A model generated the notes under the pieces. It searched no databases. It had not been told where the DNA came from and was given only the letters and a program-made list of their open reading frames with translations. The position numbers were made by a program, and so were the translations under genes. 64,000 nucleotides of DNA from Escherichia coli (GTDB taxonomy: Bacteria; Pseudomonadota; Gammaproteobacteria; Enterobacterales; Enterobacteriaceae): NCBI RefSeq assembly GCF_030013205.1, contig NZ_CP122648.1, one strand, 5' to 3'. Of this stretch, positions 47,601-49,163 are shown in pieces. The number at the start of each line of letters is the position of its first letter. Positions within the stretch are counted from its first letter, which is position 1.

Positions 47601-47774
47601 TATATTCGCACATCTTTAAAACGCGAATACGCCACCGAAAATGGCACGGAATTAAACGAGACACTGCCCAGACTCAGTCCTTTAAATCCGCAATATAAAA
47701 CGAAAAAACAGACTGTTTTTCAAAAAATTAGCGCATTTATTGAAAAATTTAAGGGGGTGGGTGGAAAGATTTAG
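44658..47774 (+). CDS. hsdR: Type I restriction enzyme endonuclease/translocase subunit HsdR
   Basis: 1,038 aa; Walker A TGSGKT and DEAD-box variant FDECHRSQ; good ribosome-binding site; follows hsdMS. Confidence 0.9.
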
Positions 47775-48970
47775 GGAAGGTGCGAATAAGCAGGTCATTT
47801 CTTCCCAAGCTGACTCGCTGATTAAAATTTCGCGGATCTGGGCCGATTTTTTTCCCGCAAACACATCGAATCGGCCTATTTAGGCTATTTTTTCCACCAT
47901 TTCTGGCGTTATTTCCGGTTTTTACTGAGATCTCTCCCACTGACGTATCATTTGGTCCACCCGAAACAGGTTGGCCAGGGTGAATAACATCGCCAGTTGG
48001 TTATCGTTTTTCAGCAGCCCCTTGTATCTGGCTTTCACGAAGCCGAACTGCCGCTTGATGATGCGAAACGGGTGCTCCACCCTGGCACGGATGCTGGCTT
48101 TCATGTATTCGATGTTGATGGCCGTTTTGTTCTTGCGCGGATTCTGCTTCAAGGTTTTTACCTTGCCGGGACGCTCGGCGATCAGCCAGTCCACATCCAC
48201 CTCGGCCAGCTCCTCGCGCTGTGGCGCTCCTTGGTAGCCGGCATCGGCTGAGACAAATTGCTCCTCTCCATGAAGCAGATTACCCAGCTGATTGAGGTCA
48301 TGCTCGTTGGCCGCGGTGGTGACCAGGCTGTGGGTCAGGCCACTCTTGGCATCGACACCAATGTGGGCCTTCATGCCAAAGTGCCACTGATTGCCTTTCT
48401 TGGTCTGATGCATCTCCGGATCGCGTTGCTGCTCTTTGTTCTTGGTAGAGCTGGGTGCCTCAATGATGGTGGCATCCACCAAAGTGCCTTGGGTCATCAT
48501 GACGCCTGCTTCGGCCAGCCAGCGATTGATGGTCTTGAACAATTGACGGGCCAGTTGATGCTGCTCGAGCAGGTGGCGGAAATTCATGATGGTGGTGCGA
48601 TCCGGCAGGGCGCTATCCAGGGATAATCGGGCAAACAGGCGCATGGAGGCGATTTCGTACAGGGCATCTTCCATCGCGCCATCGCTCAGGTTGTACCAAT
48701 GCTGCATGCAGTGAATACGCAGCATGGTCTCCAGCGGATAGGGCCGTCGGCCATTGCCCGCCTTGGGATAAAACGGCTCGATGACAGCGGTCATATTCTG
48801 CCATGGCAGAATCTGCTCCATGCGGGAGAGGAAAATCTCTTTTCGGGTCTGACGGCGCTTAGTGCTGAATTCACTATCGGCGAAGGTGAGTTGATGGCTC
48901 ATGATGTCCCTCTGGGATGCGCTCCGGATGAATATGATGATCTCATATCAGGAACTTGTTCGCACCTTCC
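47775..48970 (-). mobile_element. IS5-family insertion sequence (about 1,196 bp, diverged from canonical IS5)
   Basis: Terminal inverted repeats GGAAGGTGCGAATAAG (47775) and CTTGTTCGCACCTTCC (48955-48970); flanks TTAG and CTAA. Confidence 0.85.
47922..48902 (-). CDS. insH: IS5 transposase InsH
   Basis: 326 aa [35 protein letters not shown]..., DDE transposase. Confidence 0.9.
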
Positions 48971-49163
48971 CTAAGATAATTGGTTTTTAGCGAGTGACGG
49001 GCTAGGTTGTGTCAGTCTGTCTCATGTCGATATTACGGGGATGATGCAAACCTGAATGCTGCGATATTGGCGTGTCAGGGGAGGCATCTTACGGTATCAT
49101 TTACCGCAATTTTTAAGATGCAATGCCCTGCATCGCAGGCTTTTCTTCAGACCAGGATGATTC

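Follow-up and report, generated by a model that had tools for sequence, protein, structure and literature searches.

The hsdR gene of a type IC restriction system in an Escherichia coli genomic island is followed, directly at its stop codon, by an IS5-family insertion sequence whose two flanking tetranucleotides do not form a direct repeat. This raises the question of whether the element was acquired by simple insertion or whether it marks the joint of a rearrangement. The window analysed here (the whole stretch of DNA studied, 64,000 nucleotides of contig NZ_CP122648.1, assembly GCF_030013205.1) is a part of the E. coli chromosome in which tRNA-Ser(GGA) (positions 37415–37502) lies between the flg, csg and ghrA genes and the genomic island. 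The 3.2 kb around the element were 100% identical to strain K_EC180, to O139:H1 strains and to a set of porcine ETEC genomes. The island cargo includes cbtA/cbeA, an antirestriction gene, the intact anti-phage gene hhe (DUF4011, 1,915 aa; 51646–57393, downstream of a GmrSD fragment) and an IS3 fragment split by a group II intron (ltrA); cargo of this kind was noted at positions 51646–60400 of the window. The IS3::intron block is also found in the IS-free strain 19SZHZ886Rt, at a distance of just 1.3 kb from hsdR. The features on which the question turns are the following:

44658–47774, plus strand: hsdR of type IC (EcoR124 family), 1038 aa, intact, with the stop codon TAG at 47772–47774
47771–47774, no strand assigned: left half-site TTAG, native hsdR sequence holding the stop codon
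47775–48970, minus strand: ISKpn26 (IS5 family), complete, with the transposase convergent with hsdR
47775–47790, plus strand: terminal inverted repeat on the hsdR side, GGAAGGTGCGAATAAG, 0 mismatches
47922–48902, minus strand: IS5-family DDE transposase, 326 aa, intact (NF033581 transpos_IS5_4, 367 bits against a cut-off of 140)
48955–48970, minus strand: terminal inverted repeat on the hsdM' side, GGAAGGTGCGAACAAG (minus-strand reading), 0 mismatches
48971–48974, no strand assigned: right half-site CTAA, native upstream of the hsdM gene of a second type I system
48975–49163, plus strand: retained non-coding leader of the second type I system, 98.7% identical to CRE1540 (positions 7001–8166 of locus L005)
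49164–50136, plus strand: hsdM' remnant (HsdM_N and the first part of N6_Mtase; Pfam PF12161 and PF02384), cut at 50136
50137–51471, plus strand: C-terminal fragment of a GmrSD/DUF262-type nuclease (PF07510 GmrSD_C)

The restriction gene itself is undamaged. Residues 1–1038 of HsdR aligned over their full length to HsdR of EcoR124I (PDB 2W00, 2282 bits), and the protein matched TIGR00348 hsdR with 767 bits. IS-free relatives end hsdR at the same stop codon; because the target of the element contained this codon, hsdR keeps its native stop and its full length, and ISKpn26 leaves the HsdR protein unaltered. As a whole, hsdR is a recombination mosaic, with 37–143 differences per 3,117 nt between relatives (loci L001–L019), arranged in blocks. 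The neighbouring hsdS differs in length and sequence between relatives, in line with the swapping of specificities that is expected in type I systems.

Positions 47775–48970 hold a complete IS5-family element of 1,196 bp directly 3' of the hsdR stop codon. Both 16-bp terminal repeats agreed without mismatch with the IS5 terminal-repeat consensus used (GGAAGGTGCGAA(T/C)AAG, 16 bp), for which 0.07 matches per window would be expected by chance. The original prediction had called the element IS5. The assignment to the family held, as shown by NF033581 and the terminal repeats, but the element is not IS5 proper: it was 100% identical to NCBI-annotated copies of ISKpn26 in at least 15 genomes and only 91.2% identical to IS5A of K-12 (1,196 versus 1,195 bp). 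Judged by its identity to these NCBI-annotated copies, its right name appears to be ISKpn26. IS5A has the same 16-bp termini as the element, and the first difference between the two is at position 18; internal to the terminal repeats, the differences concentrate in the ~150 bp at the start and the ~200 bp at the end of the element. The departure from canonical IS5 near the ends, which had likewise been pointed out, is thus real from position 18 inward, and it follows from the element being ISKpn26.

Simple insertions of this element duplicate 4 bp of the target, as had been assumed at the outset. A copy in acrR of Klebsiella pneumoniae is flanked by a perfect CTAG duplication (PMC8023600). On the Klebsiella IncFIB/FII plasmids LR890282.1 (L020, 5588–6783) and pCMC309P_P1 (L021, 6072–7267), ISKpn26 lies inside hsdM, and these two independent insertions have perfect 4-bp duplications, CTAG and CTAA, respectively. 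A second ISKpn26 copy in E. coli W2-5 also has a perfect CTAA duplication. Copies with unmatched flanks were observed elsewhere, namely IS5A of K-12 in CP4-6 (L011, 1456–2650; TTAT/GGAG) and ISKpn26 of plasmid pKp_SB61067_1 (L022, 5302–6497; TTAA/CTAA). IS5 and ISKpn26 copies without a duplication are therefore not rare in the family.

In the window, the element is bordered by TTAG at its left end and CTAA at its right end, two tetranucleotides that are mutual reverse complements and do not form a direct repeat. The position of the hsdR stop TAG within TTAG, the CTAA on the other side and the relation between the two were all described correctly to the base in the original prediction (TTAG at 47771–47774, CTAA at 48971–48974). 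Direct repeats that might reappear once the IS ends are redefined were also looked for, and none were present: the ends are exact, and shifted ends were ruled out, with TTAG and CTAA each being native in IS-free relatives. The outer 3-bp GAT on both sides (GAT-TTAG ... CTAA-GAT) was considered as a repeat and rejected; it is native on each side and hence a coincidence. An ORF of 63 aa (47749–47940, minus strand) spans the left junction, starting inside the IS end and stopping 26 bp into the 3' end of hsdR. It is annotated by NCBI as the “hypothetical protein” WP_306417990.1 in most of the inspected hsdR/ISKpn26 genomes; it had no Pfam match and is probably a spurious junction ORF.

Comparison with IS-free relatives allowed the native context of each flank to be determined separately. 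The IS-free hsdR loci (L002 and L014) have TTAG at the same place at the hsdR stop. In strains 19SZHZ886Rt and O111:H8 7-58 72A, this TTAG is followed by (T/C)AGTAACAAAAGG... and then by a small ORF. This check of hsdR genomes without the IS, which had been proposed beforehand, yielded a downstream sequence unrelated to the right flank of the window. L002 and L014 have in common ~290 bp of native sequence downstream of hsdR, which are missing from the window. An attempt to place the right-hand limit of the inserted block by comparison with L002 gave no clean boundary, as the limit falls inside diverged IS3 fragments.

With 98.7% identity, the right flank matched the leader and the 5' part of the hsdM gene in a second, intact type I system with the gene order hsdM-hsdS-YecA-like gene-hsdR, in which a cold-shock-domain gene precedes hsdR in the two E. 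coli islands. This system resides in an integrase-bearing island beside yecA/tyrP (CRE1540, L005; VE-F10, L009) and on Klebsiella F-type plasmids (L020 and L021). In the loci without an IS at the site (L005, L020 and L021), this stretch is ...TCTTA-CTAA-GATAATTGG, with CTAA as the exact point from which homology to the window extends; the CTAA is native also in VE-F10 (L009). The sequence 5' of the native CTAA is ...GCTATCTTA in the yecA island and on the Klebsiella F-type plasmids. For the right flank, the nearest IS-free copies are located outside the tRNA-Ser island, either ~1 Mb away (yecA island) or on plasmids. As judged from these alignments, TTAG and CTAA are half-sites of two different targets, each native to its own flank. 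An empty site was sought as a contiguous match to a synthetic query made of the last 300 bp of hsdR and the first 296 bp after CTAA, and the flanks were joined without the IS in none of the 5,426 complete E. coli genomes. Klebsiella conjugative plasmids with the hsdM-hsdS-YecA-like-hsdR locus represent a possible source of the right-flank DNA.

The two junctions of the element differ strongly in their distribution. The left junction, hsdR/ISKpn26 (query of 300 + 300 bp), was detected in 211 genomes, and the right junction, ISKpn26/CTAA-hsdM', in 24. The whole hsdR-IS-hsdM' arrangement, a configuration of 1,796 bp, was found in 19 genomes, which comprise 15 identical porcine strains together with Ecol_244, EPSSH018, NT1N25 and NT1W25. 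Among the sampled genomes, at least four right flanks abut one IS terminus with an identical left junction. Three of them were revealed by sampling genomes in which the left junction is present and the right flank of the window is missing:

CTAA-GATAATT: hsdM' (window type)
TTAG-ACAAAG: inside ISEc8 (CRE1540, THO-010)
CTAA-AAAAAG: beside a 4Fe-4S/dmsD/DMSO-reductase cluster (W2-5, LWY24)
CAAG-AGAACG: inside a truncated gluconate permease gene beside lutC (13P460A, AR_0137, 005008)

The TTAG...TTAG flanks of CRE1540 were considered as a surviving original duplication. This candidate was rejected, since in IS-free 7-58 72A (L014) 437 bp separate the TTAG of the hsdR stop from the TTAG inside the left end of ISEc8. 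The ISEc8-type arrangement is thus the IS together with a deletion of 437 bp, flanked by two different sites. The last 395 nt of hsdR were identical to the window in all 10 sampled IS-bearing relatives. Within the element, positions 99 and 550 are G and C in the window and in nine relatives with an intact 1,196-bp copy; three ISKpn26 copies on Klebsiella plasmids have A at 99 and T at 550. Given the common hsdR tail and the two IS markers, the data fit one ancestral insertion at the hsdR TTAG, which would have been followed by several independent events beyond the IS.

Several relatives have altered the locus further. In NT1N25 (L001, 7001–8198) and NT1W25, a chimeric element of 1,198 bp occupies exactly the same TTAG and CTAA junctions; its first 78 bp are of the ISKpn26 type and the remainder is of the K-12 IS5 type, a composition that indicates putative gene conversion or recombination between IS5-family copies in place. 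A derivative in VE-F10 (L010, 8001–9903) has the IS truncated at the transposase-start end and fused inside hsdM', with IS100 inserted downstream; this strain also retains the intact second type I system in its yecA island. In W2-5 (L006, 7301–13871; L012), a DMSO-reductase-like operon of 5.4 kb lies between two ISKpn26 copies in direct orientation; ISEc31 splits the second copy. The bracketed operon resembles a composite transposon or a translocatable unit.

Taken together, the ISKpn26 copy of the window very probably represents a rearrangement junction rather than a simple insertion. A 4-bp direct duplication and an empty site are both absent, each flank has an IS-free context of its own, and one junction occurs with several partners. 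The window holds a single ISKpn26 copy and the best-matching chromosome a single IS5-family copy, which does not correspond to a composite transposon. The original prediction of a recombination or deletion junction that joins the type IC system to a decayed locus is consequently supported by the differing native contexts, the missing empty site and the multiple right partners. A simple insertion whose duplication later mutated, from TTAG/TTAG or CTAA/CTAA to TTAG/CTAA, has as its sole point in favour the central TA common to both tetranucleotides, and we regard it as highly improbable. It requires that two of the 4 bp were substituted, whereas the 15 best-matching genomes do not differ at all in the 300 bp to either side; moreover, both tetranucleotides are native in IS-free relatives, the native continuations of the flanks are unrelated and the empty site is lacking from all 5,426 genomes. 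IS copies are classic sites of misassembly, and a misjoin across the repeated IS would give the same picture, but the probability of such an artefact is close to nil: 19 complete genomes, each assembled independently and together covering several countries and hosts, contain the 1,796-bp configuration, and the best-matching chromosome, with its one IS5-family copy, offers no repeat to collapse. An inversion would need a second, inverted IS copy; as the best-matching chromosome, that of K_EC180, has one IS5-family copy, inversion is excluded for the sequenced strains. The order of events could also have been the reverse, with the IS placed at the hsdM CTAA and a leftward event reaching hsdR, or the hsdR TTAG could be a hot spot that was struck independently. 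IS5-type elements prefer certain tetranucleotide targets, YTAR-like in sequence, and hsdR overall is a mosaic, both of which are in line with such a history. However, the left junction is ~9 times more widespread than the right one, it is constant in position and orientation across four right partners, the 395-nt tail is the same in 10 of 10 relatives, the intact copies have 99G and 550C, and no right junction with another left flank was seen among the copies inspected. Either of these histories is therefore quite unlikely.

The rearrangement reading itself admits more than one mechanism, since transposase activity at one IS end and homologous recombination between two IS copies leave an identical structure. 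In the latter case, two ISKpn26 copies in the same orientation, one at the hsdR TTAG (TTAG/TTAG) and the other at the hsdM CTAA (CTAA/CTAA), would have crossed over inside the IS to give one hybrid copy with TTAG/CTAA flanks; the CTAA copy could have been on the chromosome, on an incoming plasmid or on an excised island. We hold this explanation to be a serious one that nevertheless falls short of probable; as a sub-mechanism of the junction reading, it is nearly as likely as the transposase route. The chimeric IS of NT1N25 and NT1W25 suggests that IS5-family copies at these junctions do recombine or convert. ISKpn26 is also very common on plasmids of enterobacteria, where a query with the complete IS matched at least 5,000 records, and it has struck the same type I locus at least twice on Klebsiella F-type plasmids. 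Against recombination, the second-parent junction (...TCTTACTAA followed by the IS, in full form ...TCTTACTAA joined to GGAAGGTGCG) was absent from the 5,426 E. coli genomes, the GTDB species representatives and the JGI metagenomes, as well as from five inspected plasmid loci, 73 plasmid records covering at least 80% of the query. The best single-piece plasmid match, pKp_SB61067_1, proved to be an unrelated IS1-ISKpn26 neighbourhood and was rejected, the query having contained an IS1 end. The ISEc8-type relative would need a second IS merely 437 bp away, and the polymorphisms of the IS (29 variable sites among 12 copies) are too few to show a crossover.

For the rearrangement junction, we propose the following sequence of events. 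As the distribution of the junctions suggests, a single ISKpn26 would have inserted into the TTAG overlapping the hsdR stop, leaving hsdR intact, in a CP4-like island bearing an EcoR124-type hsdMSR operon. The DNA beyond the IS was then replaced or deleted separately in different lineages, an outcome that is seen in the genomes and whose mechanism we infer; each new joint coincides exactly with the IS terminus and a typical IS5-type target tetranucleotide (CTAA, TTAG, CTAA and CAAG). In the lineage of the window, the new neighbour is the CTAA that natively lies ~190 bp upstream of hsdM of the second system. In the favoured route, the transposase would have directed the IS end on the hsdM' side against that CTAA. 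With the second system downstream in the same island, the result would have been an intramolecular adjacent deletion; with that system on another molecule, two replicons would have fused and the second IS copy would later have been lost.

Adjacent deletion is known for DDE insertion sequences such as IS903 and IS1 and is assumed here for ISKpn26; we found no direct experimental record of such deletions by ISKpn26 or IS5. Within the junction reading, we assign the transposase route about an even chance and recombination between IS copies a chance somewhat below that. The former is slightly favoured because without it two insertions at a distance of 437 bp would be required in the ISEc8 case and because the second-parent junction was not found. 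The primary insertion product (IS-TTAG-(T/C)AGTAAC..., in full form CGCACCTTCC joined to TTAG(T/C)AGTAAC) was not detected in the E. coli genomes, the GTDB species representatives or the JGI metagenomes, and the order of events is therefore drawn from the distribution. In the same three collections, no ancestor with the second type I locus downstream of this hsdR was found. With neither product nor ancestor at hand, the initial insertion and the intramolecular form of the second step are offered as conjectures. TTAG and CTAA are ordinary YTAR-type sites in opposite polarity, and their complementarity is most likely without mechanistic meaning; since the right partners are CTAA, CTAA, TTAG and CAAG, a complementary pair is expected by coincidence.

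A further event shaped the right flank. The hsdM' remnant is joined, without a common frame, to the GmrSD/DUF262 fragment at 50136/50137, with 1 nt of microhomology at the joint. Ecol_244 keeps an extra 3,420 bp at this joint (L003, 7167–10586), which comprise the remaining part of hsdM, a stub of hsdS, an IS3-type DDE fragment and a first DUF262 gene. The joint of hsdM' and the GmrSD fragment is thus a separate, IS-independent deletion of 3,420 bp, and in the proposed sequence of events this 3.4-kb deletion is the last step, which truncated hsdM' after the junction had formed. Due to the truncation, hsdM' scored below the cut-off of TIGR00497. It is a dead remnant of a type I system different from that of the upstream hsdR.

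Scars of this kind, left by IS-mediated rearrangement, are already known; the ISKpn26 scar after hsdR, in the tRNA-Ser defence island of porcine E. coli, is routine and reveals no new mechanism or system. Its value for annotation is that the element should be named ISKpn26, hsdR be regarded as intact and hsdM' as a dead remnant brought beside hsdR by an IS-mediated event. It also provides a natural example of one fixed IS junction with several neighbours (211 genomes, at least four outcomes), which shows how insertion sequences reshuffle defence islands. A bolder reading, which we consider doubtful, is that ISKpn26 at the hsdR stop may serve as a recurrent docking point, at which the 3' side of the intact restriction system repeatedly gains or loses different defence or metabolic modules. 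If this were true, the locus would be an IS-anchored hot spot of cassette exchange in E. coli defence islands, and the hsdM'-GmrSD'-Hhe, ISEc8, dms-like operon and lut/gluconate flanks would be independent captures and not nested deletions.

The components of the locus are close to known systems. The upstream restriction system resembles the type IC system EcoR124I in the full-length homology of HsdR and in the gene order hsdM-hsdS-hsdR; however, EcoR124I is encoded on the R124 plasmid, whereas the system of the window is chromosomal and lies in the tRNA-Ser island. The element has the same 1,196 bp, 16-bp repeats and intact 326-aa DDE transposase as ISKpn26 (IS5 family, IS5 group), described in K. 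pneumoniae, with 100% nucleotide identity to annotated copies, but simple insertions of ISKpn26 carry a 4-bp direct duplication, which the window copy lacks, and the window copy lies on an E. coli chromosome instead of a Klebsiella plasmid. IS5A (insH1) of K-12 belongs to the same family and has the same terminal 16 bp, the same gene layout and YTAR-like targets. Adjacent deletions and hybrid-flank copies are general knowledge for IS1, IS903 and IS26; unlike those cases, the locus of the window is known from sequences alone, with no intermediates recovered. It nevertheless shares with them one constant and one variable flank without a duplication, and, as in known IS-mediated deletions, the joint lies exactly at the IS terminus and a preferred target, with several independent outcomes in relatives.
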